Below, in pieces: positions 661 through 32,061 of a DNA stretch of 64,000 nt (positions are counted from its first letter, which is position 1; each line of letters starts with the position of its first letter). Location: contig VRMN01000005.1 of assembly GCA_008690995.1 (NCBI GenBank), positions 682,001-746,000 of the forward strand, written 5' to 3'. The notes under the pieces were generated by a model. That model was not told where the DNA came from. It saw only the letters and a list, made by a program, of their open reading frames with translations, and did not search any database. This DNA is from Porphyridium purpureum. Taxonomy: Eukaryota. A program made the translations under genes and the position numbers.

Positions 661-770
661 GGGTCGGACGAGTGGGTCGGACGAGTGGGCCGGACGATAG
701 GACGGGACGAGTGGGCCGGACGATAGGACGGGACGAGTGGGCCGGACGAGAGGACGAGACGATTGGACGG
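661..770 (+). repeat. GGACGA-rich degenerate tandem repeat upstream of transposase 1
   Basis: gggtcggacgagtgggtcggacgagtgggccggacgataggacgggacgagtgggccggacgataggacgggacgagtgggccggacgag. Confidence 0.85.
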
Positions 771-830
771 CGCGAGGGGGCCGGGGAAGGGGGCCGTGCG
801 AGGGGAGTTAAAGGGATTCGGCGCATAGGC

Positions 831-3800
831 ATGGATAGTCGTGAGAGCCTCGCCCACAAGCCGTGGCATCGTCGTCGAGAGAAACGATTACAATGCGATG
901 GTGTCAACTGCGATTTTTCACCGCCTGAAGGACAAGGTTTATCTTACACTGCGCGGGTCCAAGTCATGCGAGAACACAAACTGTGCTGCAGACTGCGTGT
1001 ACGCACAGGGCGCATTCCATACGCGAATCTTCGACGGTCGACTGCTGTGTACGGTGGCCCATGCGATGACGATACACGCAGTGGAATTGACTTTGACGTC
1101 AGTGCCGGCATAGACAATCATGACGACAGCGCACGGGACAGCGACAATGACGGCGGTGATGACTTCGTGGACCCAGAAGAGCAGATTGAATCGGATGATG
1201 ATCTTGCTCTAGAGAATGACGCGGCAGACAATGATGAAGCCAACGAAGCAGAACGTATGGGACACGATGCAGCACAGATGAGCGATGCGTATCCTAGTCG
1301 AGAGATTGACGTCGAAACGCTTGTGACCCGTTATGCAAAGCGTTTTGAGAGATTACTCGACCAGAAGACTTTACGCCAGCGCCTACAACACCGCGACGAC
1401 AGCATCTCGAAGTACGTGCGCACGTTGACTGGCATAGGCTCATCGGAGAACATTGACATCGACGATGCAGTCGAAGTTCTAAGGTTTAAAAGTGAACAGG
1501 AGATGTTTATGCACAAGCACGCCATTTCCACTCGCGAAGCACTTGAACTAAAGTCGATGGAGATGCAGCTGTTACGCATCACTACTCGCACGACTCTTCG
1601 GTATATTACTCGAATAATCAGGCGTGCCTTTACGGATTTGAGAAGGAATCTATCGACCTGCGATGCATCTTTACTTGAGAAGGCCTTCTCTGTGATGCAA
1701 ACAAGTATCAACGAATCAGCTGCGGGTCTGGTTAAGCGAGCTTCGACCCTTCTTTTCACCCACAGATCTAAGCAATGCATATCGGATATCATCGGAAACA
1801 CAGTCATCGATGCTCAGGAGGCAATTATTGAATACGGCGCAGGGAAGACACTGCATGGGAAGATTTTACCTCGCAATGTGGTCCAAAAGATTCGCTTCCG
1901 TGAGCCAATGGAGCTCGCAGTAAATTCGGTTGTTTCCATCATCAGGGAATACGGTTTGGACGCCTTGAAAATCAATCTCTTCGAAGACCAACAGCGCAAG
2001 TCCCTCGTTTTCCCGCAAGATGGTAACCTGTGTGTCAACGCAGCTCGTCGCATCGCATTCGAAGTCAGGCAGAAATATGGTCCGGACCCACCTGAGGCAG
2101 TTCTATTTCCGCTGCAGATATACGCTGACGAAGCGCACATGACACAGAACGGGCGTCATACAATGACGCCGCTCAAGATCCGTATCGTGCATCGTCGCAT
2201 GTTCTGCTCAGATGCTCACCGTGAGCCACATGTCGTCGCGTATTTACCTGCGGTGGACACTGAATGCGTTGCTAGAGCATTCGGAGCGAGCCAAAACCTC
2301 CACATCAATGCAAAGTTGGCTCGACGTGAGCTCGAATCGTCGATGTATCACGCGATCATGAGCAAAACATTTTACGACACGCTAGCTGCTAACAAACATG
2401 GCATCCCAGTAACATGGCAGCAGCGTCGACTGCTTTTCTTTCCCATCGTGTACAAATTATCGATGGACATGCCAATGATATCAAAGTGCTCTTTCACCAA
2501 GGCATCGTTTGTATCCGGTGGGCGCGCGCAGAAAATGCCCTGTCATCAATGTATGGTACAAGCTCCACAATCATCGATACACACGCTCAGCACACCAGCG
2601 GCGCCACATCAAACAGAAAATGATGAGTTCTGGGTTACACGACGTCCCCTGCAGTATCGATCAGAGAAGAAAATTGAACACCTTGTGACCCAACACTTAT
2701 CCGAATGGGGAGCTTCGATGAGAAAGGCACATTCTCTGCAGTTCATCGGAGAACATGCAGCGATCGGATGGAATCGCTTCGACGAGAATGATGACAAAGA
2801 TTTCAACGAACTTGCAGCTGGATACGAGGAACACATAAGGCTTCTTAATCGTGGAAGGTTCCAACTGACCAGTATCGATGGGCTTCACGGTTTCTTGGCG
2901 TTCTGGTTCCGCGGCATAACCGTTGCCGGACTCAAGGCATTACTGAGCAAGCCAAATGTCACCCACCGAGTAGCAAACGTTGTCTTTGAACTCACGGAAG
3001 CGCAAGAGCGCGCGAAGCAATATTCAAAGCATGGGGAGGAAGAAGACGCAATCGGTGCCATGGCATCGCTTGATAGAAGCGAAGATACATGTGCCAGTGC
3101 AGGCGAGAGCAACAGCGAACATGGTTCCGAATCCAACAGCGAATGCGCGTCTGACATCGATGGACCATCACAATCTGGACAAGCGTCACCCGCAAAGAAA
3201 CGAAAGACAGCAAGCGCTCCGCCCAGCGGGACGAGATTTTCACACTCGAGTGCACATGGCCGTGCGCTCCCATTGAAGACGGCAACTCCAAAGCACAAAG
3301 GCAGCGCAACAGATCAGCTTCGCGGAATCATTGACTCAGCCGCTGGAAAAGCATGGAGCCGAATAGCCACGAATATCATGAATGAAGCCAGCTTCCGACG
3401 ACACGCTGTGTACACGCGAATTCGCTCCTCTAACTTCTTACTCGACTTGACAAAACTCGCTGAACAATCATACTCGCTTGGTCACCTTCTCCAAATGGTC
3501 GTACTCATACAACAGGAAGACATCCTCGAGGATCATGCACGCATTGCCTTCACCAATCTTGCAATTCGATGTATTCAGTTGTACGGCGTACTATATCTGC
3601 GAGTGATTCCCCGTGACCTGCTGATTCGCATCCCAAGTCTCACAAGTGAAGTGCAATCGCGGCTTCGAATATTCACACAGCGCATTAATCTACCTTGGAA
3701 TGCTCCAAAGATCCATGCGCTTTCTCACTTTGGCGATAATTTGGCGGACTTCGGGCCGATGAAATTTTGGGATACGACGGACGGTGAAAAATCCTTCCAA

Positions 3801-4745
3801 GTTGACAAGGTCTGGTTCAAGTCGCTGGTTGGTTCGGACACTTGGAAGCCGCATGAATCTATGCTACGCCGCGCTGCTAAGCACGAACTTGCATCGTTTT
3901 CGAATCGCTGGCTCTGACAACTAACGCGAGACGCGTATTTGAATGAGGGCCAACAATCAGACGTGCGGACGTTCACCAACACGGCACCAAATGTGAACAC
4001 AGCAAATCAAAGACACCCATGGTACCGGCATCGAGGATCGTCAATACATTTCTCATCGTCTTTATTCGGTGTCTGGCGCGACGCATGCACCGTCTGGACA
4101 TATACCAGAGAGAACGGGTTTCGAAGTGCTTTGGAATGGCAACCACAAATATGGAACCCATACGCTTCGCGTACATCCAACAGCACAAACAGCAACGCTG
4201 AAAGGGTAGCTCTATGGGCGAGAATGGATAGCGCTTTGAAACGTTTCGCGATGAACAAGTTCCGCGCTGAAGCGACGCATGCATCAGTTGTACTCGAGGC
4301 TTTTCGACAAATGCAGCTCAAGCACCGAAGGCAGACTGTCGAATGCATCGTCGCGCATCCGGATCACTATAAGAATCCACGATGGGACTTCGTCGAGTAC
4401 TCAAAGCACTCGACCCACCCGGACCAGTACGCGTACGGGAAATGCATCTTAATCGCCCGGATCACGATAAATACGGATGAGCACAACGAGACCTTCGATG
4501 TCGCAGTGATTCAGGACTTCGAAGGGCATGATGGAGAATCCTCCAAGTCGCCGTGCGCCAGCAAGTGCATGCGTCTCGAGCCCGTGTTCCACCACCAGAG
4601 ATTGCAAAGCGACTCCGTGCAAGTGATAGACGCGACGATGATAACAGGGAGGGTGACAGCATTCCAGGATACATCGCAGAAGCTTAGCCGATGGTATTAC
4701 TTCGTGAACCCGAACACATTTGAGGGCGTACAGGCATACAATTGA
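831..4745 (+). pseudogene. Plavaka-type (CACTA/EnSpm-related) DDE transposase, copy 1, with one in-frame TGA at 3915-3917
   Basis: ORFs 672..3917 and 3939..4745 are in the same frame. Likely start is ATG 831, which aligns with the copy-2 start. N-terminal C-x4-C-x20-H-x3-C Zn finger. Motifs FPLQIYADEAHMTQNGRHTMTP, KLSMDMPM, PCHQC, WNAPKIHALSHFGDNLADFGP..DTTDGE and C-terminal AHPDHY..PRWDFV resemble Plavaka transposases as I recall them. Collinear with copy 2. Confidence 0.8.
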
Positions 4746-4788
4746 AGTTGCGGTATACGAATCACTTCCCCTTTCACGCGAATCCCAT

Positions 4789-5070
4789 GCTTTTTCCGGC
4801 TGTTTTTCTCCGAGTTTTTCAATTCGTACAAGAAACGTTTTTCCAAAATTCAAGAAGATGCGATTGAAATACCTCAGATCACTCTACTATTCTGAAAGGA
4901 CAGCGGCTGAACAGATTTTCCACGAGTTTTTCTGCCATTTATTATTAGAGTTTTCTCAAAAAAGACAGACAATGGAAAAAGCACTGTACTTTTCGTGCTG
5001 ACACTGCAAGGAGTTTTTCCAAGAGTTTTTCCGGGCGTTTTTTTGCCATTTAGCACACGGACTGTCCGTG
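4789..5070 (+). repeat. Degenerate GTTTTTC(C) motif array downstream of transposase 1, ending in a 15-bp hairpin
   Basis: Repeated gtttttc/gagtttttcc motifs, then TTTTTTGCCATTTAG and CACGGAC-T-GTCCGTG (5056-5070). Mirrors the 3' region of copy 2. Confidence 0.6.
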
Positions 5071-5449
5071 CGGAGCATATCCTCACAAAAGTTTTCGCAC
5101 TCTTGGATGTGAATACACACGCCCACGACCGCAAATATTTCTGCCTTGATCCGTGTCGTCTCTTGCGAGTAGAAACATATGTGTAGAGGAAAGCATGTCG
5201 ATGAATTTTGCCCCCTTCGCTCACTTTGAAGACCAACAATGCGATACCTTCCGTAGCTCGTCCCGCTCTGCCTCGGTATCTCCAGCCCACCCATGAGCGC
5301 GCGGCTCCACGGGTTTGCATTTGCACATGCAGGGCCTCGAAAGGCGTCCGGTAAATCGTTTACGCCGGGCGTAACGTAGCGATACAAAGTCACACCGTTG
5401 CCCAATACTACTTCGAGCTCCCAGCGAAGGAGAGGGAGGTGGTTTATGG

Positions 5450-6415
5450 ATGAAAACGCCAGTCCTTGTGGAGACAGCAAGCGAACCGATGAGAAAAACG
5501 AATAACGCGCGGGGTTCAAAGCGTAAGCGTACCGGCGTCGAACCAGGTGTGGAGCCAGTGGGTCCACGCGCGGTGCCATCCCATTTGGCTCGCGCAGCCC
5601 AGATGCAACGTGAACATGATGGTGCAAAGTCAATTGACATTGCGGATATCCGGCACTTGCACGACTTGGGTCGTGCGAGCGATGGTATGGCGGTCAGTGA
5701 CGACGACGGTGTTGTCCATCGACTGCTCCGCGTACTGATGTTCGCCACTGACGTGATAGAAGACCGTGCCCGGATCAAGGAGCTTGAGATGAGGGTAGCA
5801 GCATTGTCCCGGAAGGTCACAATATTGGAGACTCGGATACACGGGAGCGTCGCCGTTGACTCGCTGGATGTCCGCGATATTGAGACACCAAAGTCGGTAA
5901 TTGGTGACGTGAGCCTTGCACAGTTCACGAGAGCCGCCCCGATATCGGACGCAGTAGCCGGGAATATCCGCGACATTTACACTCGTAGATGCGGCATCGC
6001 AAAAACATGGCTGCGTTCCATAGCCCCGCATGACAGACCTTACCCATATGAACTGGTTCTTGCAAGATACGCCGGATGGCCATGGTGGCCGGCCGTGGTG
6101 GTTCTCAGTATTGACGGACTTGGCCCTGAAGTTCTTATGAAAGGGTGCGTGCGAGATACCTCTGAAGAAGGCCGCAAGAAAGCCGACGAAGATGTGATGA
6201 CATTGAGGAAGGGTTGCATCGTTGTCCGTTTCCTTGGGAAAAGCGCCGCATCTTTTGTGTGGGTCCTCATGGAGCACACACATATGAAGCACGATTTTAC
6301 CCTTGTGGATGGTACGCCGAAAGGGCGCACAAAGCCATCGAAAGAGTTGGCGTCGGCGTATGCCATGGCGAAACAGTATGCTGATATCAGACTCAACGGC
6401 GCAAAGACCCGTTGA
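5450..6415 (+). CDS. PWWP-domain protein (putative chromatin reader), with a coiled-coil-like segment
   Basis: ELVLARYAGWPWWPAVVV...CIVVRFLG..ASFVWV...F...ELASAYAMA at ~6041-6385 fits the PWWP pattern. N-terminal basic patch SKRKR is NLS-like. Confidence 0.8.
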   Translation: MKTPVLVETASEPMRKTNNARGSKRKRTGVEPGVEPVGPRAVPSHLARAAQMQREHDGAKSIDIADIRHLHDLGRASDGMAVSDDDGVVHRLLRVLMFATDVIEDRARIKELEMRVAALSRKVTILETRIHGSVAVDSLDVRDIETPKSVIGDVSLAQFTRAAPISDAVAGNIRDIYTRRCGIAKTWLRSIAPHDRPYPYELVLARYAGWPWWPAVVVLSIDGLGPEVLMKGCVRDTSEEGRKKADEDVMTLRKGCIVVRFLGKSAASFVWVLMEHTHMKHDFTLVDGTPKGRTKPSKELASAYAMAKQYADIRLNGAKTR

Positions 6416-6473
6416 TGACATTTTGTCTGCGCAAGGCGAGCAATAAACTCCATTTATAAGCAGTACACTATGT

Positions 6474-8108
6474 TCAAGGTTTCGTGTCCGAACCAGAATA
6501 TTCCATGTAGTCCAGGAACGAAGGTGCAGATGCCGCGGATGGTGCGCCCATAGCTTGTTCGATATCGTCGCTTTCATTCATTGAGTTCACCGTTGGAGCA
6601 TGTGAAGGTCGGGGCAAACGACTAACAGACGCGCGCGGGCAATTGATGAGGCGCAATTGAGTTGCACGATATCGGATGGCTCGACACAAGCGTAGGTCTC
6701 CGTCGTTGATTGCGATATCGCTGTCACGGACACAAATTCGGCCCTCTTCGTCCAGCTGTATGGAATGGATATCCGAGCGAAACCAGCGTCGGCATGTCTG
6801 GATACACTTCAATATGCCCATGAAGCCCTTCTCAGGCAGCTTTCCATCAGCCCAAGACGTATATGTTTCCCAGTGTATTGGAATATTCCATTCGTCTTCA
6901 TTATCTCCAGGCATGTCATCACTTTCCTCCGATCGGTCTTACCAGTCCGATGCGGTGTCATCACGTGCTTGACACACTTTCGATATCGATGGTGCCCGCG
7001 GTTGAGCCGAAGAGACAAAGAGGGAGTGCATCTGCAGCTTACACAGCCCTTCCAAGTTGAGTCCGATATCAGCAAACGGAAAGTCTTTTCCATCCTTCGC
7101 ACCCGAGCGCAGGCCCAACAGTGACAGCATGAGCGAGTTTGACCACAGTGTCGACGACCAAGCCTTGTCAGATTCGGAACCGTCCCTATCCGGACGTAGC
7201 CATATGGAGTCCGCTTCATCGATTTTCAGCTCACGACAAAGGACACTGTAGTATGGATCTCTTTCAAGCGCCAATATTGATCGGCCATACTTTCCCAGGA
7301 CCTGCGTGATTGCGCAGTAGATCGCAGTCATCCAAGTGATACCGATATCGAGAGCTTCCTTCTCCTCGTTTGGCGTGATGCGGTCATCCAGTGGAGCTAA
7401 ATTTGTACCATATGGTGATACTGGCGTTCCGAACTTTCTGTACAGTCTAGAACTTAATAATGGCCGACAGGCAAACGACTTGACCGGTTCCTCAACCGTC
7501 CCGTCTCGCGTTATGCAGTCGACGACGCGACGCGCGGTTCCCAAGTGGGCCTTGAAAGCTGCCGCGAGCGACAAACGAATATTCCTACGGAGCCTATTTT
7601 TGGCACCTTCCAGCGATTCCTGCATCAAAGTAGTAAGTGCTTCGTCTTCCATCATGGACGGAGGATCCACAAACCCAATGTCAGTGTACCACATGGTAAA
7701 CATTGTCAAGCCCGGCGATGCCGCTGGCGTGTACGGCTCGCGATGATCATATGTAGCGGCAAGGCGCTCGAACTTGCGCCAGAAGTCCATACAGCCCGTA
7801 CCCGCGTCGTCGACCTTTACAACAGCAGGTAACAGCCCACGATTCACAATATTGCGCACAAAGATATCGGTCGCGGAGCCTCTTCTGGCTCGCTTCTTCG
7901 CTCTGTCTTTCCCGCGGCGCCGCCGCCCAAAATTGGAGCCATCGACTGTGGAAGACAAGGCTGGTGTGACCACAGCCTCCGCCGGCGCGTCCTCGTCCCC
8001 CCGCAGCCGCCGGGCCACTGCGCTGCGCGACGATATCTCAGCGCTGCGACTCATTCTAATATTGACACCCGCGCCACGGACACGCGCACCCCTTCCCAAG
8101 TCTGCCAT
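6474..8108 (-). pseudogene. Uncharacterised ~540-codon gene with one in-frame TAA (6939-6941)
   Basis: ORFs 6939..8135 and 6474..6914 are in frame, separated by one stop and 8 sense codons. Probable ATG at 8108. Basic NLS-like RRRRGKDRAKKRARR. No recognised domain. Confidence 0.6.
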
Positions 8109-8391
8109 ATGGCGCGCCACCTTCGAGACGCACAAGTTCGCCTATCTCTCTTCTCCCCCTTGGCGAGAGCGCGCGCAAAAAGACAAGTCGAGATTGGAAA
8201 AATAGAGCTATTTTCATATGAAAACGTGACCTTTTGGACGTGACCCGTGTGGGGTGTTGGGGACGGGATCGCATGCCGGCAAGTTGCGAAGGGGTCGCTT
8301 GCTCGCGGAGAGAGAGGGGAGCGGCGATATCGCGACAGAGGCAGGTTCTGCGGAGACGGGGATTTGCCGGCTGACGACAGCACTTGTCCAT

Positions 8392-11300
8392 ATGGAACGC
8401 TCGCTCGATTCATACCGGGCGGAGGCATGGGAGCTGGAAGACTTGTACGTGTCCGGGGATATCACCCAGGATGACTTGGACGCCACTCCATATGGACAAA
8501 GGATGTGTTTCGGGCCGCTGCTGCCGCCCGATCTTCTGCAGGTCTCTCGGGTGCGGCGCACGGAAGCCTTGCGCCGTGACGAGACGGCCGCGTCGGACCC
8601 GATGTCTCACGCCGATATTGGAGCCCGCGAGGCGCACCTGGGCATCGCTGTGAGCCATGCCTTTTTGATGTACTTCAGCAATATTGTTGGAGCTCTCAAG
8701 TGTCCACGTGGCGGCGTCACGGTGGCCCACTGGATCGCAGAAACCCCATATGGGCAGCATCACTATTCAGCCCATATGGGAGAGCGGGAGGTGGCACTGT
8801 ATCGCATGTTTCTGGCGGCGCAGCGCACGGAACGCCTCTTTGCGTGGTCATATGACGAATTCACGGGTGCGGTTGCCGACCAAAGTGCTCCGCGCCAGCT
8901 TTCATATGGACATAAGCGCAGGCGCACTGACGCAGGTGCACTCGGATATCCGAGCCGTGCACGCATTGAAGAGAGTCTAGACTTGGAGGCATGGCTGCTG
9001 AAGCAGAGATGCGAGTGGCCTCGCCGCCTGACAACCGTTGGCCCATATGAGCTCAGCCCAAAGCCGACGCGAAGTGACGGCTGGAACAGCGCATATGCTC
9101 ATTTTTACCATTTGCGCTCGCTTATGCCTACTGCGTACGGTGCGCCATCATATGATGCTGCGTTGGTGGTTCGCGGCCACGATGATGCGGTGGAGCGCAT
9201 CTCGAGGCTTACTCGCAACGCTTATCGGCTTCCTCAATTGCCGCGCAATATTGCATGCCCGTGCAACACAACAGGATACCCGGCCGTCATCTTCGTCCAC
9301 GAAGGCCCAAGGCTCCATGTGGAGACGATGCGGACACGTCCGCGCAGGGCAAGAGACGGTGACGAATTGTTCCCGAAGGGATGCTTGGCGCGCTTAGAAC
9401 GCATCCGCGCCGTGCGCGTGATGATGGACTTTGCGACAACGCTCCTCGATATCAGCACGTATGCTACCATATGGTTTGGCAGAGATGCTGCTCTTGCGCA
9501 TATGCGAAACTTGGTCCAAGAGCTCCGGAGCCGTGTCGTATCCGCTGACTACTCGGGGTCGGTCTTCCCATATGGGCCCACCGAGATGGATGAACAGCCG
9601 CAAAGGGTGTTTCGCTGGCCGCCACACCATACAGAGTATCATGGGCGCCGGCTGCGCGAAGCCTTCAGGATGGAAAACGTCCCGACCCAGCAGATTTCTG
9701 CAGATGGGCAGACTTATACCGTCCCACGCTACTCCGAGAGGCACGCCGTCGACATATGTGTAGCACGGCTGCGGAGCGCTCAGCTGTATGCTTGGCCTTC
9801 GATTGCGAGGACGCAATTGTATGCGTTCCGGGACGCGATAAATCCAGATGGAATGCACGTCCCGGAGTTACTCGCACCACGCTTCGATGTCGGCATGTGC
9901 AACATCCTGGAATGGGGCATTGAGCTATGGGACCACACGGTAGAGGCGCACAATCGAATATTCGCACATGTGACGCATGACTACCTGTAGGACGACCTGC
10001 CCGAACTGCATGCCACACCGAGGGACACGGACTTGGCCATTGCCAAGGTGTTTGGCAGCTTCCATATGGAGCACGGAGGTAGCAGGATCAACTTTGGCCT
10101 TCCTGAAGACCTCAATATTGATGCAGCCTCGCACGCAGCATCCATCGAGCTCGACACGGCAGCAATCCAGTATTGGAAGGCGCAAGAGACTGCCTTTGCC
10201 TGGGATCGGGGGAGCAGCAGCGTGTGGGTGCAATGGTTATCTGGCAACGTGACCCGAAGACATACGTACCGCGGACACCAGTGCACATCTAATGTGCGAT
10301 CAATAGAGTATGGGGGGTCCGCGCCATATAGTGTCTGGGTCGCCATGCTCAGGCGATTGTGGACGGATGGCTGGCAGCTGCAGAGGGGCCTTGAACGTGC
10401 GGCGGAGATGCTACCACGCCCATCCGAGCCGCGCACGCCACATGGCACCCGTGTTGAGGAGCCTTTTGCCCCGCAAACGTACCGCACGTCCAGCCTCGCA
10501 GGCGGTACTTATGGGCATATGCGATTGCCAGCGGCCAGCCAAAGTTGGAGCGATGTGGACATCGTGCGAAGCCCGATATCGGCATCTGCGCGTGCACTTC
10601 CGGCGTCCGCACACGTGGATATCCAAGACTGCTTGATCTGTCAATTTCCGGTGACAGACCAGTTCATCTACGAGTGCACGACCCTGCACCCGACATGCAC
10701 TAGCTGCCTGCGCATGACATATGCCTTTAAGGTGGCGAACATGTACAGCATAGAACTGTCGAACTTTCACGTGGATGACAGGTTCATGCGCAATTATAGC
10801 ATGTGCGAATTGTGCAGGAAGGCCGTTGGCGTCTGCCGCATATGCGAACAAAATTACGCATTCGCGCCCTTCCTTTTTGCCGGCGCAATCTGTACGGAAG
10901 GCTTCTCGGACGCTTTCGTCGACCATATGGAGAGATGTCTTTTAACATGGCACGTCACAGATTTTGCTGCCTTGGCCGGCTGCATCGCCGAACCCAGAAG
11001 CTCGGGCAGGTGGCGGATGTCCACGAACCCACCGCTCGTCGAACTGGTAGCAAGCCAGGCGCGGCGCCACTTCGCGCACAGCATATGCCACAATATTGTT
11101 CGCATAATGCTCGTCGAAATGCGCCGGGCCCGGGCTCGCCAGATGAGTTTACCAGTGGAGGATATCCAGGAGTTGCTGGGGTATTTCCCTGGAAATCGAC
11201 GCAGGCCGTATGGAATATCCCGCAAGCTTGCGTTTGACGTTCTGGACACGCGCCGATTTCCTGTGTGGGACGATATCGTCAACGAGTACAACATGTACTG

Positions 11301-11682
11301 GGATATCCGACCGGTCGTACAGGCAATTGGCTCGAGCCCAGATTGGCCTCACCCGCCGAACTTGCCCTGGTGCCAACATATGAACAGTACGTGGCGACCT
11401 GGGTATATCCGGCATTATCCGGGTCAGCGCATAATGGAGGATATCCTTTCATATGAGCAACAGCGGGCTCGCTGCTGGTGCAATTACTTCGTGTCGGAAA
11501 CCAAGCTCCGCATGCGGCAGGCACTAAGCGATCATTTGGTCTCGCTGCAGGAAGGCGGCACCGGGTTAATACCGCCGCGACTGCAAGAGCTTTGCGTGTG
11601 CGACGAGTGCAGGACAGGGCAAGGCGTGGCTGCTCATATGAGAAGATACCCAGGGCTGGCGGACGACATGAAGATCGCGTGA
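8392..11682 (+). pseudogene. ~1100-codon C3HC4 RING-finger-containing gene with one in-frame TAG (9988-9990)
   Basis: ORFs 8254..9990 and 10033..11682 share a frame with only one TAG between them. CLIC-x11-C-x3-H-x2-C-x2-C-x~32-CELC at ~10630-10815. First in-frame ATG at 8392. Confidence 0.65.
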
Positions 11683-11752: not shown

Positions 11753-12010
11753 TGTTATCCGCCGACCCCGCGGATACCTAGTCTTGCGGGATCCTTGCTG
11801 TGGCCTTGCTGTGGCCTTGCTGGAACCTTGCTGGTCCACTGTCATTTTTCTCACAGTGCTACCCGGCGAGCTGGAGAACACGGGGCGGCAGTCTATAAAA
11901 AGGCGTGGAGACCCGCGAGCAGGCTCGGGGACAAAAAAGAAGAAGAGAGAGAGGAGCGAAGGGGAGAGAAGAAGGAGAGGGAAAGTAAAAGGAAAAGGAG
12001 GTTCATAACA
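11753..12010 (+). mobile_element. Solo LTR (258 bp) with 5-bp target-site duplication CCAGG
   Basis: Begins TGTTAT and ends ATAACA. CCAGG at 11748-11752 and 12011-12015. Internal TATAAAA (~11894) followed by a purine-rich tract. Confidence 0.9.
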
Positions 12011-15200: not shown

Positions 15201-15919
15201 CCTGAAGGTGCGTTCGAATCACGCAAATTCGTTCCAGGCGTTCTCTTGACACGCATATCCGTATCCATTTTCGCAGCGTCCAACGAATCTCCGGATGCAT
15301 ATTTCTCTGCACCAGCACCTGCTGCAGGTAGTCCGGTATCCGCTGGAAGGTGTCCGCGCAATGCTCTTGCCGACACACTCTGCGAATCCGACGACACAGA
15401 AACCGCGCGAATCGGAGATCGACGGCCAACACTGGACATGGATGTGGTCGACTTCTTCGCAGTATCCGAAGCCTTTCCCACGATATCGGACGGTTTCGCA
15501 CCGACGTCCTTCACTGGATCCTCCTTCGGATTTGCACCGACGTCCTTCACTAGATCCTCCTTCGGATTCGTCTCCGCGTCCGCGCATTTCGCACCAATCG
15601 GATCACCTACCGCAGCCGTCTCAACTGAAGCCGTAGCTGGCGCGGACTCCGACGGCACTTTTTCCACATCCCTCTCAACTTCATCATTCGGATGACCTCG
15701 GACGGCTGCCTTCAGTTTCGACGATGCTCCTCGCACTGCCGAACCCTGACCCGCACCGGACGCACGCCCAGGCTCCACCTTTTTCGTCGCCGCCGGATAC
15801 GTCGCTTTACCCCCCTTGCCCTGCGCACTTCCGGATACCACTTTCCTTCCTTTCGACGGATTCGGATCCGCCACTTTCTTCCCGGTGTTCTCCATCTCGT
15901 CCCGCTCACCACCACTCAC
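12286..15919 (-). pseudogene. Large uncharacterised gene (~1200 codons), divergent from transposase 2, probably one gene with a frameshift near 13.7-13.9 kb
   Basis: Overlapping ORFs 13664..15919 and 12286..13893; the latter frame is open from 13914. Low-complexity N-terminal third includes a 12-aa duplication NPKED(L/P)VKDVGA. Aromatic-rich, globular-looking C-terminal part. No recognised domain. Confidence 0.6.
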
Positions 15920-18900: not shown

Positions 18901-19845
18901 ACGATTATCTTCGTTTTTATCCGACTTACCCAAATTCGCAGAACAATCATATTCGCTGGGCTTTCTACTTCAAATGATTGTTCTTGTACACCAGGAGCAT
19001 TTACTCTCGGATCGTACACGTGAAAGCTTTACCGAACTTGCAACCAGATGTATCCGACTGTATGGCGTACTATACAAAGAAAAGCTGCGTCGACCATGGC
19101 TTGAACTCATCCCAAGGCTCACATCCGACTTGCAATCCCGACTCGATTTATACAAACGGCAGATCAATCTACGTTGGAATGCTCCGAAAATACATGCACT
19201 GTCTCACTTCGGGGACAACTTGACGGATCTGGGACCGATAAAGTTTTGGGATACTACGGATGGAGAGAAATCGTTTCAAATCGGCAAGGCGTGGTTCAAA
19301 TCACTGGTCAGCGCAGATACGAATATCCCACATAATGTCATGCTGCAGCGCGCAGAGGTGTTCGAAATCGGATCTTCTTCTTCGTACTGGTTTGATAAAC
19401 TTACAAGGAACAAGGATTCGAATGCAATTGCATATACACACGAACAAGTATCCGATAAAGCATACACACATACACGAGAATCGGATGCCGCTCGAGCGTG
19501 GTACCGGCACCGCTCGTCTTCTGTGAACTGTTCATCGATCCTTTTCGGAATTTGGCAGAACGCGTGCACTACTCTGACGTACAGCAGCGAATCCGGATTT
19601 GAGGCTGCCCCTTCATGGCGACCAACGGCATGGAACCCTTCTATATCATTCGAATCCGCTGATGACGAAGAAACGAACATGCTCTGGTTGCACACGGATA
19701 CGGCTTTGAAGACGTATGCATCCGAGAAACTCCAAACGGCTGTGACTGATGATACTGCAACCTTCCAAGCTTTCAGACAAGTTCAACTGAAAAAGCCTTG
19801 CGACGAAGCCGAATGCATTGTTGCACATCCGAATCACTATCGTTC

Positions 19846-20104
19846 TGTCAATTAATTAAATAATTAATTAACTCTCGCTGTACCTACAGGGGTACAGCCC
19901 CCCTCAATATAACCACTTGGTTATAATGAGGGTCTCCATCTCTCTCCCTGCTAGTCCTAGTATAAAACTACGCCGAGTCGCGGCCGGCCTAGCCGTCAAA
20001 AAGTAAACAGACAGAGTCGACAGAAAAGAAGAAGAGTTCATAAAACTTTGTTGGGTCGCCGAGATAGCTTGGCAACTCGGCTCTCAGATCCGTAGGGATT
20101 GACA
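19846..20104 (+). repeat. 5' LTR of the Copia element
   Basis: Direct repeat of 26304-26562 with 7 substitutions by my comparison. Contains TATAAAA. Confidence 0.95.
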
Positions 20105-20605
20105 TTAGCTAATTACGTTCCTAACGGTGAAAGAATACAAGTGACTGAAGACAGATGACGCGACCGACGCGGAATACCGCGGGCGCGGGTGGAAGTAGTG
20201 TCACGGGAGTAGCCCGTGTGTTAAGGAAATGATTAAAAAATAGCCATAGTCCGTGGCCGGATACCTGGTCGCGCCGGACCCACTGTACTGTAGGTGTACA
20301 AGGGGGCGCGTGGTAGGCCTGAAGGCCCCTACCCTTAGGGACCAGACGCGCGATGACCACCCAGTATGGAATGGGTGTACAGCCAGGAGGTGGCTGGAAC
20401 CTTCTGGAAGGTTCTAGACTCAGCGACAGCAAGGCACTGTACCTCGGGGGTACAGTGGTCGCAATGGGTATAAAAAGACGCGCGGGTCGGCAACCAAGGG
20501 GGGGAGAGGGGGGCCGGGAGACAGAAGGAGTAAGGTGGATCTAAGTAAAAACAGGTGTATGCAAGGAAGCGTGTTCGGGCCTTGGGTACCTGTTGAGGAG
20601 CGGGG

Positions 20606-20646
20606 GTACAGCGGGAGTACAGCGGGAGTACAGCGGGAGTACAGCG
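20606..20646 (+). repeat. 11-bp tandem repeat (GTACAGCGGGA x~3.7) in the Copia leader
   Basis: Read directly from the sequence. Confidence 0.85.
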
Positions 20647-21076
20647 CGAGCGAGCGAGCGGGGGGTTTAACGGGGAAGGTTCGCGGATGCCCTGGGGTAA
20701 GGCGTCATTAGACGGTCCTTGTTCGGAAGCGGATCCGGGGGTGGTACGTGGGCGGGGGCGGATAAAGGAGTGATAGGCCGTTTGAAGCCGAAAGGTGAGG
20801 TAACCTCCTCTGGCTAACCCCGGCTGCCCACAACGCCTCCCCGGGTCCCGGATCACCGTAAGGTGTGGCCGAACGGGATCCCGGTTGGGCAGCGGACGCC
20901 TGGTTCCCCCGTTACGCGCGTCTTCCGTGTGTGTGCTTTTGGTTGGCTGTGCCTGCTCCGTGCGTGTGCTCTTGGTTGGCTGTGTCTTTCCCGTGTGTCT
21001 GCTCTTGGTTGGTTCTGTCGGTCCCGTGTGTGGGTGCTCTTGGCTGTTTGCGTGTGAGCAGCGTGCGTGAGCGTCG

Positions 21077-22771
21077 TTGGTTCCGGGTTTCCTGCCTGCC
21101 GCAGGTCCAGTTGACTGCGGGTGTCTTGTGTTTCCTCTTGGTTGCGTGGATTGTCCAGCTTGTGTGCGTGCGTGTGCCGCTTGGCTTGCTGTTGGGTGTG
21201 CCGCTGTGTCCTGGGCCAGCACGGTTCGTGACAGTAGCGACGGAGACCGTCGAATTGGCGCTGCAGCGGAGCAATCTCCGGATCAAGATACACAGGTAAA
21301 TATAGAGACAAATCGTGAGGACATTCGTCTGGTCTCCGCGGGTGTTGCCGATACTTCCATTACGACAGCTTTGGCTTCGATCGATTTATCCGGTTTCTCC
21401 TTTGAGAAGAGACTTGCCATAGAAGATCTGCAAGAATTTGTCACGATGTTCCGTCAGTACAACGGTGTAGCTCTCATGACGCAGATGGTACGTCGCTTAC
21501 CATTTTCGAGCATCATGAACGCTGGAATCCTCGCCAGAGAAGAATTTGTTTCCTTTTTAATGAATACGGAAGTTCCAGGATTCCGTGCGACGGATCCACG
21601 CGTTTCTACAGAGGAGAAGTTTCGTCGAATTTATGACAACGCGCGTAGCACATCGATCGATCAAGGAAGCACGGTGCGAGCTGATGAGCCATCGCCATCC
21701 AACCATCGCACGGGATCACGCGACGGCGAGGTCTCAGGCATGGCTGCTATTTCGCTCTTGACCAGTTCGAATCCCGCAACCGGTCGGACATTGGCACAGA
21801 GCGCGGCGGATATGTCAAAACTCGTGCGCTCGGATATGATTTTCCACATGGATGAGTTCGTTGACAAAGTTTCGTATCGAGCTTGGAAAGAAGAACTCGC
21901 GCTCTCTTTCGTGCGAGCGGAGGTTGCCGCTGAGCACCGTCCGCTCCTCGTTGGGCTTACTTTGGGCGGCGCAATTAAGGAGCACTACCAGCAAAATGCG
22001 CGTTATGACGCACCTATTTCAGATGTTTTTGCAATTCTCGACAACAAGGTGTTTTCAGGTGAATACAACGAACACATGATGCACAATTTCGAAACAACAA
22101 AGTTTAGTGACTTGGTTGTACGCATGCGGGGGGCTCGGACCAAAGCAATTCTTTATAATCTGTATCATCGAGTGCTGAAGTATGCACAAAACTGGTTACC
22201 GGATGAATACCTCGGAGACAAACGTCTTCTGCGTGCCTTGCGCAACGCGGTTTAAGACGAGCACTTCGCATCCGGCGTACTTCTCAAGAATTTCGACAAA
22301 GGCGACGATCTATACGAACACCTCGCTGGCTGCTTGAACAGGCGTGCGCGTTAACGCACCGACAATTCCGATCGGAGAATCCACGCCAACGCTGCGAACA
22401 CGCGACAACTCGTAGAAGGGCCGATCGCCACTTCGCATCGCCCGCTTTTCGCTCGCGATCTACGTCATGTACGTGATCAAGATTCCCGTCGCGCAAATCA
22501 TGCAGACAGTCGGGCATGTCTTAACTGCAATCAACCCGGTCATCTTTTTCGCGCGTGTCCTTCGCCTCTGCGTCCAGAGCTGCAACGTCAGCTTGCAACA
22601 CAGCCTGTCCGTTCACTCCTCCAGACATTTGATTTCGAATATGACTGTACATCGACCGCACAAGAACCGACTGAGTCGCCGGACGACACACAACAGGATG
22701 ATGAGTTTTATGGTCCCGTCCCATACGCACAGAATGATTCGGGGGAAGAGCACGGGGTTCCGGACAACTGA
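21077..22771 (+). pseudogene. gag: Copia gag with two internal TAA stops
   Basis: ORF 21077..22255 continues in frame past two TAA stops to a zinc knuckle CLNCNQPGHLFRAC (22517-22558). The frame ends at TGA 22769-22771. Confidence 0.8.
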
Positions 22772-22806
22772 TAACCAATTCGGGACCCCTATATTCGGAC
22801 TACGAG

Positions 22807-25800
22807 ATGTGGGCCTTACTTCAAAGTAATGCGGCGCGCATCATGCGCAGCCACAGTGCGATCAACGTATCATGGCGAAAGTCCTTTTGGGGCATATGCG
22901 TGGATACAGGTGCAGTGAAAAGTTTCTGTTCACTGCCGCAATGGCTTGAATTTTGTCGCGTCGTAAACCAGAGCACTACTTTACGCTCGGCCAAATTCTA
23001 CAGTCATTCTTTGGACATCGGTCTGCTGCATTCGCTGGGCTCCGGGACTGCTCGTCTTCCCATCACATCTGATTTGATTTTAACCTTTGATGTTGACGTT
23101 CTGGATACTCGTCGTCAAACTGATCCAAATTGGCCACCGATGGTCCTCGGTTTAGAAGATTTGGATGCGGCTCGGTGCTACGTGAACAACTTGGACAATT
23201 CACTGGTCTTCGAACGCGTTCGCTACCGATTAGTTCGACGTCTTCGCCGTCTTTTTCTGGTACCGGACTTTGAACATGTGTCCAATGTATTATTGACATA
23301 CGCCGAGCTTCGGAAAATTCATCGCAAGTTTGCACACGCGTCGGCGGACCGTCTGGCACACATTTTTGATGTGGCTGACGCTCCGCTATCCAATGATGAT
23401 ATCAACTCTCTTCGCGAACTGACCAAGTCCTGCCACATATGTCAACGATTTGCTCGAGCACCGCGTCATTTCCAATTGTCCGCTTCTGTTGATGTAGTTT
23501 TCAATCATACAGTGGTTATGGATCACTTCTCACTCCTTCAATCTTCGACACAACGTCAGCGCGCTGTCATGCATATCATATGCGAAAGCACGAGGTTCCA
23601 GGTTGGGCAGTGGATGCCAGAAGATTGTACCGCGCGGGCGCTATGGGAAATGTTTACTTTATGTTGGGCAACTGCGTACACTGGCTATCCGCACATCATC
23701 AAAGTCGACGCCGGCTCAACGCACGGTAGCGCCGAATTCAAGTCTCTAGCGTCGGCTTATTCTGTGCATGTGGCTGTGCAGCCCATCGAAGGTCATCATA
23801 GTATCGGTCGCGTCGAACGCGCGCATGGGATCATTCGTGACATGTATGACAAGATTGTGGAAGCTGATGTTGACGCGGATGACGACGAAGCTCTTTCGCA
23901 GTGCTTTTTCATTGCCAACAGCTTTCCCAGCCATTCGTCTATTCCTCCGTGTTTGATGGTTTTTGGAACACTGCCGCGCCTTCTCATCGCGTCAGTTGAG
24001 TCCGTTCCTTCGCAAGCGCAACGCATTCGTGCAATCCTCATCGCTCGCAGAAGCTTCGAAGAATACATTGCGAAATCCTATTTGAATACGGCACTGCGAC
24101 GACGGCATCAAGCCGCCACGCCTTCAGACGATCTTTACCCTCAGCCAGGGGCCTTCGTTCTTGTGGCTCGCGAATCTACCAAAAGGGGCCGCAAGTACAC
24201 ACGCTACGAAGGCCCTTGTCTATGCAGTTCCGTATCTGGTAATTCGGTCGGTATTTGTATGCCGCCAACAGGCTCGGTGCGACATTATCATGTGAATCAC
24301 GTCAGACGCTACATCTCAGATGATCACATATCAACGTCCGCGCTACTAACACGACCTGTCACCGCGGCTGAATTTCGCTCCAACACAGCCTTACGAGAGC
24401 AGTTTTACAACAGCGACATAGAAGAACTCAAGTGGCTTTATTCTCGTGGCGTTTTTGAGCGTGCGGACAAAATTGCCAAATGTGCAATTATCCTACCAGC
24501 GTCCATGGTTCGTGTTTTCAAAAATGCGGAAACTGCAAATCCGATTCCGAAATCCAGACTTGTTGCGCTTGGCAACTTGGATCCAGACAAGAAGAATATC
24601 GTCGTTGAGAGCCCAATGCTATCCATGTGGGGCTTCCGTGTCATTCTTAGTATCGCAGCCAACCGCGGCTGGCAGCTGTTTACGATTGATGCCAAGAAGG
24701 CGTACGTGCAGAGTTCGAGCGCGCTGCGGCGTCCTATCTTCCTTGTTTTGCGGTCACCGCTCAGCAATTTATTTGCCACAGCAATATCCTCGCCGTGTTC
24801 GGGGTCGCGAATATATTTGAAGCTGTTGAAGCCACTGTATGGCCTCACGGAAGCTGGTACATACTGGTGGTTTACCATCCATGATGCTCTATGTACTTTG
24901 CATTTGAGTGTTTCGCCTCTTGACATGTGCTTCTTCTATTCTTCTTTTGGCCTAGTTGGCGTCCTGAGCGACAATCTTATATACTGCGGCACTGACCAAT
25001 TTGTCCACGACCTTCAACAAGTCTTGGAAGCTTTTGTCATGTCCGCTGTGGAAAGTCCGCCCATGAACTTCAATGGTTGTGTCGTACTGTCCAATCCTAT
25101 TCGCATCTCGTCCACAGCCTTCGTCGACAGCCTTTTATCATGTGATTTGACAACATTACCGTTGCCTCAGGTTCGCGGCAAATTTCGCTGGCTAGCGTCG
25201 CTGTCCCGACCAGATTTGTACACCGCAGTACCAGACAAAGTCGATAACGCTGGTTGGCTTTCTACCATTCGTCGCAAGCTTATGGATACTCGCAACTTCG
25301 CCTTGCCGTTTATTCCTCTTACAAACTCGCTAGAACTATGTGCATACGCAGATGCGGCCTTTTCTGTTGATGACACGTTGCGCAGCCGTCTCGGATGGAC
25401 TATTTTCTTGCGCGACGCCACGGGTCTGGCCCATTTTCTGCAAGCGCGATCATTCAAGTCAGCTCGCGTCGTTCGCTCCGTTCTTGCCGCTGAAATTTAT
25501 GCGCTGTCCGATTGCCTTGACTTTGTTCTTGCGCTTCGCGATTCGCTGTTGCCCATTTATAATGTGCTGATACCGATTCGGCTCTTTACCGATTCGCAGT
25601 CAATCTTTGACACTGTCCATCGTTGTCGTACCATTCAAGAGAAGCGTTTGATGATCGACGTTACCATTCTACGTGATGCCGTGCGCGAGAATACCGTCAC
25701 GGATCTGTCACACATTCGTGCTCCGGACAACATAGCAGACTCCTTGACCAAGCAGGGCACCCGGGAGTCCATGTGGCTAACATTCTACAGAGACGGACGG

Positions 25801-25857
25801 CTCGTCCATCCAGTTCATCTTAGCACGGCACCGATCAAGCATTCGCCCGACCAATAA
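22807..25857 (+). CDS. pol: Copia pol (protease-integrase-RT-RNase H)
   Basis: CVDTGA protease; HRKFAH..CHIC integrase Zn finger and DDE core; KSRLVALG, IDAKKAYVQ and KPLYGL RT motifs; YADAAF, AAE, TDSQS and NIADSLTK RNase H motifs. The RT YxDD position reads LSDN. Confidence 0.92.
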   Translation: MWALLQSNAARIMRSHSAINVSWRKSFWGICVDTGAVKSFCSLPQWLEFCRVVNQSTTLRSAKFYSHSLDIGLLHSLGSGTARLPITSDLILTFDVDVLDTRRQTDPNWPPMVLGLEDLDAARCYVNNLDNSLVFERVRYRLVRRLRRLFLVPDFEHVSNVLLTYAELRKIHRKFAHASADRLAHIFDVADAPLSNDDINSLRELTKSCHICQRFARAPRHFQLSASVDVVFNHTVVMDHFSLLQSSTQRQRAVMHIICESTRFQVGQWMPEDCTARALWEMFTLCWATAYTGYPHIIKVDAGSTHGSAEFKSLASAYSVHVAVQPIEGHHSIGRVERAHGIIRDMYDKIVEADVDADDDEALSQCFFIANSFPSHSSIPPCLMVFGTLPRLLIASVESVPSQAQRIRAILIARRSFEEYIAKSYLNTALRRRHQAATPSDDLYPQPGAFVLVARESTKRGRKYTRYEGPCLCSSVSGNSVGICMPPTGSVRHYHVNHVRRYISDDHISTSALLTRPVTAAEFRSNTALREQFYNSDIEELKWLYSRGVFERADKIAKCAIILPASMVRVFKNAETANPIPKSRLVALGNLDPDKKNIVVESPMLSMWGFRVILSIAANRGWQLFTIDAKKAYVQSSSALRRPIFLVLRSPLSNLFATAISSPCSGSRIYLKLLKPLYGLTEAGTYWWFTIHDALCTLHLSVSPLDMCFFYSSFGLVGVLSDNLIYCGTDQFVHDLQQVLEAFVMSAVESPPMNFNGCVVLSNPIRISSTAFVDSLLSCDLTTLPLPQVRGKFRWLASLSRPDLYTAVPDKVDNAGWLSTIRRKLMDTRNFALPFIPLTNSLELCAYADAAFSVDDTLRSRLGWTIFLRDATGLAHFLQARSFKSARVVRSVLAAEIYALSDCLDFVLALRDSLLPIYNVLIPIRLFTDSQSIFDTVHRCRTIQEKRLMIDVTILRDAVRENTVTDLSHIRAPDNIADSLTKQGTRESMWLTFYRDGRLVHPVHLSTAPIKHSPDQ

Positions 25858-26303
25858 CCAGGCCCGCGTCCTGTCGCACCATTTGTAGGTGCTGACGCCA
25901 GCTCGCAGCGTAACCCATGCAAGTTCATGGTCAAGACGCCGACCATTTTCGCTCAAGTTCTGTCTGCAACGGTTCCGTGGCACACCACGGATGATTCCGA
26001 CGACCTTTCGCCCATTGCAGGCACCGTGTCCGACATGCGCCCAAGTGATCCTGCCCGCAAACCGATTCTCGCCTTGCGCAGTCCCTCGCGAAACGCCTTC
26101 TCCGTCGCCAACAGGTCCGCTTTTTCGTGCGGGGGACTTTCCTCGGGTACTCGCTGCGTTGGCGTTCTCGAAATTTCATTCTCGCAATCTGTTCTCATCG
26201 AGATGAACTTGCTCCTCTTCTCGTCATCTCGTGCGCCCCTGCCCCACGTCGGTCTCATGTTTCAATGAATTTTATAACATGACCCAGCAGAAAAATACTG
26301 GAG

Positions 26304-26562
26304 TGTCAATTAATTAAATAATTAATTAACTCTCGCTGTACCCACAGGGGTGCAGCCCCCCTCACTATAACCACTTGGTTATAATGAGGGTCTCCATCTC
26401 TCTCCCTGCTAGCCCTAGTATAAAACTACGCCGAGTCGCGGCCGGCCTAGCCGTCAAAAAGTAAACAGACAGAGTCGACAGAAAAGAAGAAGAGTTCATA
26501 AAACTTTCTTGGGTCGCCGAGATAGCTTGGCAACTCGGCTCTCGGATCCGTAGGGACTGACA
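26304..26562 (+). repeat. 3' LTR of the Copia element
   Basis: Direct repeat of 19846-20104. Confidence 0.95.
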
Positions 26563-27037
26563 TGTTCTCCGAGATGGGACATTCTCGAATACACACTACA
26601 AACTGGTCACCCTGAACGCCACGGATATGGAAAATGCATCCTAATTGTCCGGATCAAATTACAGGGACCTTACGACAAATCCTTTGACGTGGTGGTGATA
26701 CAAGATTTAGAGGCGCACGATGGAGAAATCGACAAGTCGGAGCGCATATGCAAATGCAAGCGCCTAGATCCGGTGTTGCATCAAACCCTACTAAGTAATA
26801 ATTCGGTAAGATTGTTAGACACGGCGAAGATAACCGGACGAGTGACAGCATTCAAGGATATCCGCATGAAGAACAGCCGATGGTACTACGTTTAAACCCA
26901 AGCATATTCGAAGGCGTGTTAGAATAAAATTAAAAGTCGGAGTCCAATGAAGTTTCATCTTTGCATGATTAAACCTATATGCTACCACCCATCTCGCAAA
27001 GTTTAAAGTTGTAGGCGGCACCACACAGTTTGTCGTT

Positions 27038-27277
27038 AGTTTTTCGGGAAGTTTTTCGGGAAGTTTTTCGGGAAGTTTTTCGAGAAGTTTTTCGAGAAGT
27101 TTTTCGGGCAGGTTTTCGGGCAGGTTTTCGGGCAGGTTTTCGGGCAGGTTTTCGGGCAGGTTTTCGGGCAGGTTTTCGGGCAGGTTTTCGGGCAGGTTTT
27201 CGGGCAGTTTTTCTGGCAATTTTTCGGGCAGTTTTTCGGGCACTTTTGGGACAGTTTTTGGGACAGTTTTCCGGGCA
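27038..27277 (+). repeat. 12-bp tandem array AG(G/T)TTTTCGGG(C/A), about 20 units, downstream of transposase 2
   Basis: Read directly. Further degenerate CAGTTTT(T)C copies continue to ~27510. Confidence 0.95.
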
Positions 27278-27559
27278 AATGATATTGCAGTTCTTCTATA
27301 AGGACTAATAAATGCTGTACGCACCCATAGTCTACTGTACCTACAATTTTCATCTGTTGTCGATCAGTTTTCGGTCAATTCTCGATCAGTTTTTCGATCA
27401 ATTTTTCGACACTTCAGCATCACAATGTTTGGACGCTGCACGACAGGTACAGCAATAAACAATGCAATACATGCTTACATCTATTTCAGTTTTCCGGTCA
27501 GTTTTTCGCCCATTTGTGTAAAGATTAATCTTTACTCCAACTCGAGGATTACAAGGCGG

Positions 27560-32000: not shown

Positions 32001-32061
32001 GGGTGTGCGGAAGGGCGAGTGCGAACATACCGGGACGTCGTGGCGGGGATTCAGCGGGTGT

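Follow-up and report, generated by a model that had tools for sequence, protein, structure and literature searches.

A mosaic of three related, probably Plavaka-like transposon families with passenger genes in the red alga Porphyridium purpureum

In the left part of a 64,000-nucleotide stretch of the Porphyridium purpureum genome (GenBank assembly GCA_008690995.1, contig VRMN01000005.1, positions 682,001 to 746,000 of the forward strand; the whole stretch is referred to as the window), two collinear transposase genes lie on the same strand, namely Tnp1 (831-4745) and Tnp2 (16347 to about 26930), which are 52% identical and have four long genes between them: a PWWP gene, orphan gene 1, a RING gene and orphan gene 2. 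This gene content had been recognized in a first-pass annotation made from the sequence alone, and its inventory of lesions is correct as well, the PWWP gene being intact and orphan 1, the RING gene, orphan 2 and both transposase genes carrying a stop codon or a frameshift. Missing from it are a 6.7-kb copia-type retrotransposon inside Tnp2 (19846-26562) and a solo long terminal repeat (LTR) at 11753-12010. The same annotation proposed 661..27535 as one candidate cargo-carrying element. The stretch is, however, a mosaic of three related transposon families joined at abrupt palindromic junctions and not one 27-kb element, since the sequencing depths differ by block, contigs branch at 5065 and 12321-12324, and the tail of a third transposase lies at 5065-5186. 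The sequencing evidence comes from contigs of three DNA runs (X1, X2 and X4) and from one RNA run, of which a fifth of the reads was used and whose strand convention fits both gene orientations.

Block A (1..5064, + strand) is a Tnp1 unit in which no cargo was seen and whose left end lies outside the view of the window. Tnp1 itself (831..4745, +; covered by protein record P0006, FVE85_4208) has 1304 codons with a premature TGA at 3915-3917 and is predicted to encode a CMCT/Plavaka-like DDE transposase. Four further protein records, 97-98% identical, lie on four other scaffolds, and three of them are full length and open; the position of the stop codon is W in P0001 and P0004, and P0005 and P0007 are full length. 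All three DNA runs contain the A to G change at 3917 that turns the stop into an open frame, and only the open form is present there. Upstream of the Tnp1 start codon, the program TRF reports a 13-bp tandem array (661..805, +), which in X1 and X2 is shorter by one unit at 775. Since all four other Tnp1 copies share window positions 272-802, upstream of and across 661, this array is internal, and 661, at which the first-pass annotation had placed the boundary of its element, is ruled out as a terminus. Behind Tnp1 follows a cluster of the motif AGTTTTTC (4800..5045, +; five matches in 320 bp) of subterminal type. A contig of X2 with a depth of 226, not listed for X1 or X4, links 5042 via 51 other letters to window position 1, which suggests a head-to-tail array of a 5.09-kb Tnp1 unit with about three joints per four copies; circles or terminal direct repeats may be alternative explanations. 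Sense RNA on Tnp1 reaches a depth of up to 6. As a side observation, the gene model of the Tnp1 copy P0004 enters copia reverse-transcriptase-like sequence at residues 1426-1585 (RVT_2, E 0.21), as if it abutted a retroelement.

Block B (5065-12321) opens with the last 40 codons of the third, distant transposase family, Tnp3 (5065..5186, +), which is ~30% identical to Tnp1 in the core, and continues with the PWWP gene, orphan 1 and the RING gene. The Tnp3 tail is 95% identical to the C-terminus of record P0010 and 87% identical to residues 1082-1127 of P0012, and P0010 is in turn 97% identical to residues 930-1121 of P0012. At a distance of 260 bp behind the Tnp3 stop lies the PWWP gene (5450..6415, +; 321 amino acids, intact), whose domain call holds, as Pfam PF00855 matches above its cut-off (28.9 versus 25.6 bits, E 1.7e-6, profile positions 2-92 of 93). 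Its 90% cluster comprises five members, and two other copies lie directly behind Tnp3: P0012 is a gene model that fuses Tnp3, then the sequence of window 5064-5201 and then the PWWP protein, and P0010 (the Tnp3 end) and P0013 (the PWWP protein) bear consecutive locus tags. None of the cluster members listed has a tag adjacent to that of one of the other four Tnp1 copies. As judged from these neighbourhoods, the PWWP gene is transposon cargo, carried by the Tnp3 element, and not a single-copy host gene. Its product has a basic patch and a heptad-like stretch, and W210, W213 and F261 occupy what we take to be the aromatic methyl-lysine cage positions, on a single-sequence model with a predicted local distance difference test (pLDDT) score of 45.5. 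The structural comparison that had been proposed for the cargo proteins was run on the PWWP protein, and this model gave no Foldseek match at E<=0.001; against sequences in the PDB, a single weak match was obtained (the PWWP domain of MSH6, E 0.41). Sense RNA over the gene has a depth of 2.5-4.5. RNA was also seen on both strands over the Tnp3 tail (5065-5400; 89 sense and 30 antisense reads at 5095), and reads at 5246-5377 are antisense only, as from a bidirectional PWWP promoter.

Orphan 1 (8108..6474, - strand; 544 codons) is interrupted by a TAA at 6939-6941 that reads CAA in other copies. The A to G change at 6941 occurs in all three DNA runs and in four of five RNA reads, the open form accounting for all of the depth in X4, for 237 of 545 in X1 and for 37 of 114 in X2, and sense RNA amounts to about 5x. 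The RING gene (8392..11682, +) is either a 1096-codon frame with a TAG at 9988-9990 or two genes. Of the RING call, the spacing of the C3HC4 ligands (10630-10815) stands, as it was reached in none of 20000 shuffles; the Pfam family Sina_RING scores just E 0.7, and the RING clusters found by the language model Atlas for this half of the gene score 0.81, below the 0.9 under which such matches are leads only. The product is predicted to be a ubiquitin ligase. The read-through protein had no homologue of 30-1918 amino acids in 5.8 billion clusters, a blank that may reflect annotation as well as novelty because the model of its own locus is missing there too. Sense RNA over the gene is 8-12x. Six RNA molecules end at 10068, beside an ATG at 10066, which hints weakly at a transcript of its own for the RING half. 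Separately, residues 85-193 of P0006, from exons outside the window, weakly match the antisense of 10576-10893 (E 0.001, 0 of 2000 shuffles); a conserved RING gene upstream of the window was considered for these exons and rejected, only one of eight RING ligands being codon-compatible. Behind the RING gene, a solo LTR (TGTTA...ATAACA, 11753..12010, no strand assigned) has been inserted with a 5-bp target-site duplication (TSD), CCAGG, and its empty site, which skips 263 letters, was found in RNA as well as in all three DNA runs. Toward its right end, the block has a perfect hairpin (12209-12237; 14-bp arms, 1-nt loop) in an AT-rich stretch.

A contig covering 5401-6910 joins the PWWP gene to the end of orphan 1, and on account of this contig and of the similar depth, orphan 1 and the RING gene likely belong to the Tnp3 element. 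The three genes would travel as one unit, but there is no contig across them and the depth of block B is as low as 1.0x in X2.

Block C (12324 to about 27518) consists of a truncated orphan 2 and of Tnp2, the latter split by the copia element. Orphan 2 (15895..12324, -; at least 1190 codons) is divergently oriented to Tnp2 and has its 3' end cut off at the junction. Its frameshift at 13667 lies in a homopolymer and may therefore be an assembly error; all three DNA runs have one letter fewer there, with only the open form. Among 1.84 billion representatives, it matches nothing but its own gene model, P0014 (FVE85_4213). The 5' part of Tnp2 (16347..19845, +) has the same motifs as Tnp1 and a frameshift near 16985, where an extra T in all three DNA runs gives the only form present, which is open; the 3' part (26563 to about 26930, +) is 52% identical to Tnp1 residues 1182-1290, and one more frameshift is likely near 26890. 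Over 970 amino acids, Tnp2 is 52% identical to Tnp1, and record P0002 (FVE85_4214) is 99.9% identical to Tnp2 over 914 amino acids. The retrotransposon between the two parts (19846..26562, +; 6.7 kb, RVT_2) has LTRs of 259 bp with seven differences and a TSD of CGTTC/TGTTC, and the empty-site continuation behind 19846 is present in all three DNA runs; this insertion, like the solo LTR, came later. Behind Tnp2, a 12-bp tandem array (TRF, 20 copies) and scattered AGTTTTTC motifs, again of subterminal type, extend over 27038..27510 (+), with 21 motif matches in 588 bp and local matches of 75-80% to the cluster behind Tnp1. One X2 contig spans 12825-18693 at a depth of 225 and links orphan 2 to Tnp2, and orphan 2 is hence cargo of the Tnp2 element, so that at least two of the three families carry passenger genes. 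A left end of Tnp2 at 16100-16350 was considered and rejected, as a contig runs through this interval at even depth. RNA is near 0 on orphan 2 and Tnp2. The first-pass view that Tnp1 and Tnp2 bracket one cassette does not survive these linkages: elsewhere, the PWWP gene is partnered by Tnp3, and the companion of orphan 2 is Tnp2. Of five breaks examined, four have an uninterrupted frame in other copies, namely the Tnp1 TGA, the orphan 1 TAA and the frameshifts of orphan 2 and Tnp2.

Depth is not the same across the three blocks, and their rank order changes between runs. Relative to the medians of six single-copy contigs per run (76.5 in X2 and 228 in X1), the depth of blocks A, B and C is 4.0, 1.0-1.7 and 2.9 in X2 and 3.2-3.6, 2.0-2.2 and 3.4-4.5 in X1, these being depths summed over the contigs listed and not copy numbers. 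In X4, for which raw depth is given without a baseline, A is lowest (about 300), B intermediate (350-480) and C highest (820-1185). In X2, positions 27178-31311 form one single-copy contig that is identical to the window but for one gap.

At the junction between A and B, contigs of all three DNA runs start at 5064-5065, and the junction itself is a perfect palindrome with 7-bp arms (5056..5070, CACGGAC-T-GTCCGTG), as found at 0.36% of background positions. The junction between B and C is likewise palindromic (12317..12328, GTGGA-TG-TCCAC, 5-bp arms, background 3.6%); loose ends of 255 or more letters lie behind 12321 in X1 and before 12324 in X2, and block B and orphan 2 thus each continue differently elsewhere. 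Block C ends in an 18-bp palindrome with 9-bp arms (27518..27535, GTAAAGATT followed by AATCTTTAC; background 0.10%). The right arm of the latter is the start of a decayed gypsy reverse transcriptase frame, and the left arm is therefore an inverted copy of the flank. At the four LTR junctions, by comparison, the arms are 2-4 bp long, versus 7, 5 and 9 bp at the three non-LTR junctions. Between the clusters behind Tnp1 and Tnp2, the AGTTTTTC motif has two matches in 21,866 bp, and the two clusters are placed as putative subterminal binding sites would be. For CMCT elements, CA..TG termini with a 2-5 bp TSD would be expected; both candidate right ends, at 5064 and 27518, finish in TG but overlap the palindromes, and no left end or TSD was found in the window.

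Membership of the transposases in the CMCT clade, which comprises EnSpm, Mirage, Chapaev, Transib and Plavaka and is defined by a DDE triad with C(2)C and H(3-4)H motifs in the text available of PMC12730594, is well supported by their motifs. Four P. purpureum families (Tnp1, Tnp2, P0003 and P0012; core identity 29-58%) share an invariant D, D, C(2)C, H, H(3)H and E, so that the D-D-E triad and the C(2)C/H(3)H motifs are all present, the catalytic role of D-D-E being assigned by position relative to the motifs. In Tnp1 (+), these residues are encoded at D 2127, D 2466, C 2541/2550, H 2886, H 3714/3726 and E 3786, the C pair lying in PCHQC at 2538 and the H pair in PKIHALSH at 3705, and Tnp2 has the same. 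The fourth of these families (P0003/P0008) has 43-45% core identity to Tnp1 and Tnp2 and is represented by three tags on three contigs. Placement as Plavaka within CMCT, which the first-pass annotation had proposed, is likely but short of proof. Of the Atlas neighbours, 17 of 30 carry PF18759 (top score 0.94, 181 of 256 features shared, 10 of 10 in agreement), with recognition below the mark of the tool. The profile search proposed along with it gave nothing in support, as Pfam PF18759 (Plavaka) did not match the open reading frames of Tnp1 and Tnp2, five related records or two core fragments. The transposase model (pLDDT 40.6) had no Foldseek match at E<=0.001. In a wide structural search, ProtoRAG and three RAG1 entries (Z 6.7-7.1) are the only ones among 50 rows that span the whole low-confidence model (6cij_A: Z 7.1, root-mean-square deviation (rmsd) 8.9, 282 residues aligned; 6b40_E: Z 8.2, rmsd 6.2, 178 aligned); helical bundles reach Z 9.8. 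A search of PDB sequences with the transposase alignment yielded 0 matches, and pattern matches to transposase relatives in metagenome contigs (342), viral contigs (33) and prokaryote genomes (18) were confirmed in no case.

From our point of view, the locus is best read as a nest of a Tnp1 unit, the 3' part of a Tnp3 element and a Tnp2 element, which were likely joined by hairpin repair and of which the Tnp3 part carries a likely PWWP tether, and we would give this reading a probability of about 0.72. Each family would be a cut-and-paste DNA transposon, with Tnp1 as the minimal unit. The DDE enzyme would bind the AGTTTTTC clusters, cut in the manner of RAG/Transib and seal the flank into a hairpin, the off-centre opening of which would leave palindromes at all three non-LTR junctions, and repair of such transposase-made hairpins would have joined the pieces. 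RAG/Transib-type enzymes do seal flanking DNA into a hairpin, and this type of flank processing fits the palindromic junctions. In the accessible part of PMC5873905, palindromic P-nucleotides are described as products of hairpin repair after Ac/Ds excision. We accordingly infer transposase-driven cutting and end joining at the junctions; alternatively, true CA..TG termini overlap the palindromes by chance, a case to be considered because both candidate right ends finish in TG. The PWWP protein could read H3K36me-type methylated nucleosomes and tether the element machinery, and so steer insertion toward, or keep the element in, open or active chromatin, and the RING protein, as an E3 ligase, might remove a host silencing factor. 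For this combination of a chromatin tether with a ligase directed against silencing, we see somewhat less than even odds. Under a bolder version, which we regard as possible but rather unlikely, at least four Plavaka-like families would have radiated within Porphyridium and been active recently. A giant Tnp3 element would carry PWWP tether, RING ligase and orphan, and the RAG-related transposases would also join elements by hairpin repair and multiply a 5.1-kb transposase-only unit head to tail.

Several points weigh against the nest with its tether. Depths were taken from the contigs listed, and summed contig depth does not equal copy number; the contigs of the runs also drop rare variants, so that the alleles of the window may be real. 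Orphan 2 and Tnp2 are single records in the annotated proteome, versus 3-4x depth in the runs. At 5065, the X4 contig has 459 additional letters that may be other than Tnp3, and no listed contig spans the PWWP gene, orphan 1 and the RING gene together. One PWWP record stands for two proteins, the second of which could adjoin a Tnp1 copy, and one Tnp1 copy lies 11 tags from the Tnp3-PWWP copy P0012 on one scaffold. The odds given for the palindromes are indicative only, because the junction positions were picked from the data, and no left end, terminal inverted repeat pair or TSD was found in the window for any block. With regard to the transposases, the missing Pfam Plavaka match, an Atlas recognition of 2128, below the 2300 mark, and the poor model, for which helical bundles outrank RAG, count on the same side.

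The strongest competing view accepts that the passengers are transposon-borne and denies them a chromatin role: they would be passive, or act at another step, for instance in turnover of the transposase by the RING protein. Passive or unrelated cargo is nearly as likely as the tether, even though we would bet against it. Two of the four passengers have no domain recognizable by Pfam, the PWWP match lies just above its cut-off, RNA is low, and no PAG2- or TET-type writer or eraser domain was found. On the other hand, other copies keep frames of 321 to about 1190 codons open, the sense strand of block B is transcribed at a low level, the PWWP gene is fixed behind Tnp3 at two other loci, and a decayed relative of orphan 2 in the right flank (30072..30566, +), although 22% identical, scores 118 versus at most 54 in 500 shuffles (tblastn E 4.6e-8), which suggests an old family. 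That chromatin-targeting or anti-silencing modules are involved was offered by the first-pass annotation as an inference only.

It is less probable, and in our view improbable, that orphan 1 and the RING gene belong to the host or to another mobile element, such as an endogenized giant virus, and were trapped between transposon insertions, and that only the PWWP gene and orphan 2 are cargo. The depth of block B in X2 (1.0-1.7x) and the lack of a spanning contig would fit this idea; the depth of about 2x in X1, the occurrence of two alleles at 6941 in X1 as well as in X2, and the contig from the PWWP gene into the end of orphan 1 speak against it. Similarly, viral clusters make up five of the eight Atlas rows listed for the RING half, but all of them score <=0.81, and scores under 0.9 are leads only. 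The GC content at third codon positions of the RING gene (0.64-0.66) is nearer to that of host genes (0.56-0.74) than to that of the transposases (0.46-0.53), yet the homologue search that came back empty is unlike what an ordinary host gene would give.

Very unlikely, finally, is one composite element of at least 27 kb, in which a four-gene chromatin cassette lies between two diverged transposases and the whole moves as a unit, having perhaps arisen recently from the nest: the same orientation, the similar motif clusters behind both transposases, the Tnp1 and Tnp3-PWWP copies close together on one scaffold and the giant EnSpm and KDZ elements that keep moving with fixed nested insertions (PMC12477816, available text) would agree with it, but three blocks at different depths, whose order changes between runs, branching contigs at 5065 and 12321-12324, truncation of Tnp3 and orphan 2 at the junctions and single-copy sequence from 27178 on in X2 do not.

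To the right of block C, the sequence into which it is joined is a decayed gypsy pol of single copy (27527-29030; reverse transcriptase, RNase H and Integrase_H2C2 pieces), followed by a decayed long frame (29200-30750; single copy in X1 and X2), the 3' part of which is the distant orphan 2 relative. Very high-depth LTR-like segments and a second copia-type remnant (gag-pre-integrase, E 0.044) occupy 31272-32320 and 32866-38700. At 41139-43225, a large imperfect inverted repeat of about 500 bp and 87%, with extremely high depth in X1 and X2, would be a foldback or nested element of high copy number. Host-type genes (TruD, glycosyltransferase 92, a mitochondrial carrier and TRAPP) lie past 48 kb. 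The window as a whole is gene-dense, with uninterrupted long frames and a GC content of 45-61%, and its proteins match P. purpureum records in homologue and cluster look-ups. Exact look-ups of predicted gene models recovered 1 of 17 for the passengers (the PWWP protein) and 0 of 2 for host proteins, and PHROGs gave 0 matches for six proteins.

The closest known systems are the giant Plavaka (EnSpm/CACTA-type) elements of Bostrychia moritziana, 17-19 kb in length, whose genes PAG1-3 have proposed chromatin roles (10.1101/2025.02.11.637652, in the text available); with chromatin-type accessory genes published from red seaweeds, the mostly fungal background given in the first-pass annotation is outdated. 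The elements described here share with them the red-algal host, the CMCT-type transposase, several large accessory genes and the tandem repeat arrays, and differ in cargo, which in Bostrychia consists of a protein of unknown function, an N6-adenine methylase with SET and ParB with a 2OG oxygenase, and here of PWWP, RING and two orphans. Neither the PAG2-type methylase (PF01555) nor SET (PF00856) had a Pfam match in the four passengers. As far as the available part of the Bostrychia paper goes, its survey of 18 genomes places Plavaka in red algae only in Bangiophyceae and Florideophyceae. The fungal PlavakaA/B and TET+ CMCT transposons with their TET cargo (PMC12730594, in part) are similar with respect to the DDE with C(2)C and H(3-4)H, the accessory genes exchanged between families and, in one consensus, the T-rich repeated subterminal motifs; in contrast to those, the diagnostic termini TGT..ACA (A) or CATCA..TGATG (B) with a 2-3 bp TSD were not found in the window. 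No TET/JBP dioxygenase was matched by Pfam among the window proteins, very remote forms being outside the reach of this search. RAG1, ProtoRAG and Transib have the same motif set, and RAG1/ProtoRAG are the only ones among the solved structures listed that align across the whole low-confidence model; unlike in these, there is no sequence match and no RAG2-like partner was seen.

With regard to the cargo, a chromatin-reading or anti-silencing module that serves a mobile element has parallels in transposon-borne readers, VANC and LEDGF. The PWWP domain of LEDGF tethers lentiviral integrase, LEDGF being host-encoded. Transposon fusions with Chromo, PHD, SNF2 and SET are reported in 10.1101/2021.11.30.470311, where PWWP is not named in the part available, and VANDAL/VANC anti-silencing is cited in 10.1101/2025.02.11.637652. 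What sets the present case apart from these is a PWWP gene that stands by itself, 260 bp downstream of a DDE transposase gene. The search for literature joining Porphyridium and Plavaka, which covered sources other than Repbase and subscription journals, found none, and nothing on PWWP cargo of such elements was found at the level of titles and abstract beginnings. PMC6811547 gives 14% repeats for P. purpureum, and its main text, as available, is without words starting 'transpos', 'CACTA' or 'EnSpm'. We thus found no earlier report of this passenger set or host class for what appear to be cargo-carrying CMCT/Plavaka-like transposons; the species list and the PAG sequences of the Bostrychia paper may bear on this novelty.

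Presumably, Porphyridium belongs to neither Bangiophyceae nor Florideophyceae, and the finding would extend Plavaka-like elements beyond the two seaweed classes of the Bostrychia paper. If the tether reading is true, a LEDGF-like targeting and counter-silencing kit would reside inside a DNA transposon, unlike the known TET or PAG cassettes. The success of the giant red-algal Plavaka elements is proposed to rest on chromatin accessory genes, none of which has been tested, in hosts that are hard to manipulate. The Porphyridium elements offer a different cargo, with reader and ligase rather than writers and erasers, in near-identical open copies. Porphyridium is a unicellular alga with a small genome and can be transformed. 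With open copies present in a transformable alga, a direct experimental test of whether readers encoded by transposons guide insertion or counteract silencing would be within reach.

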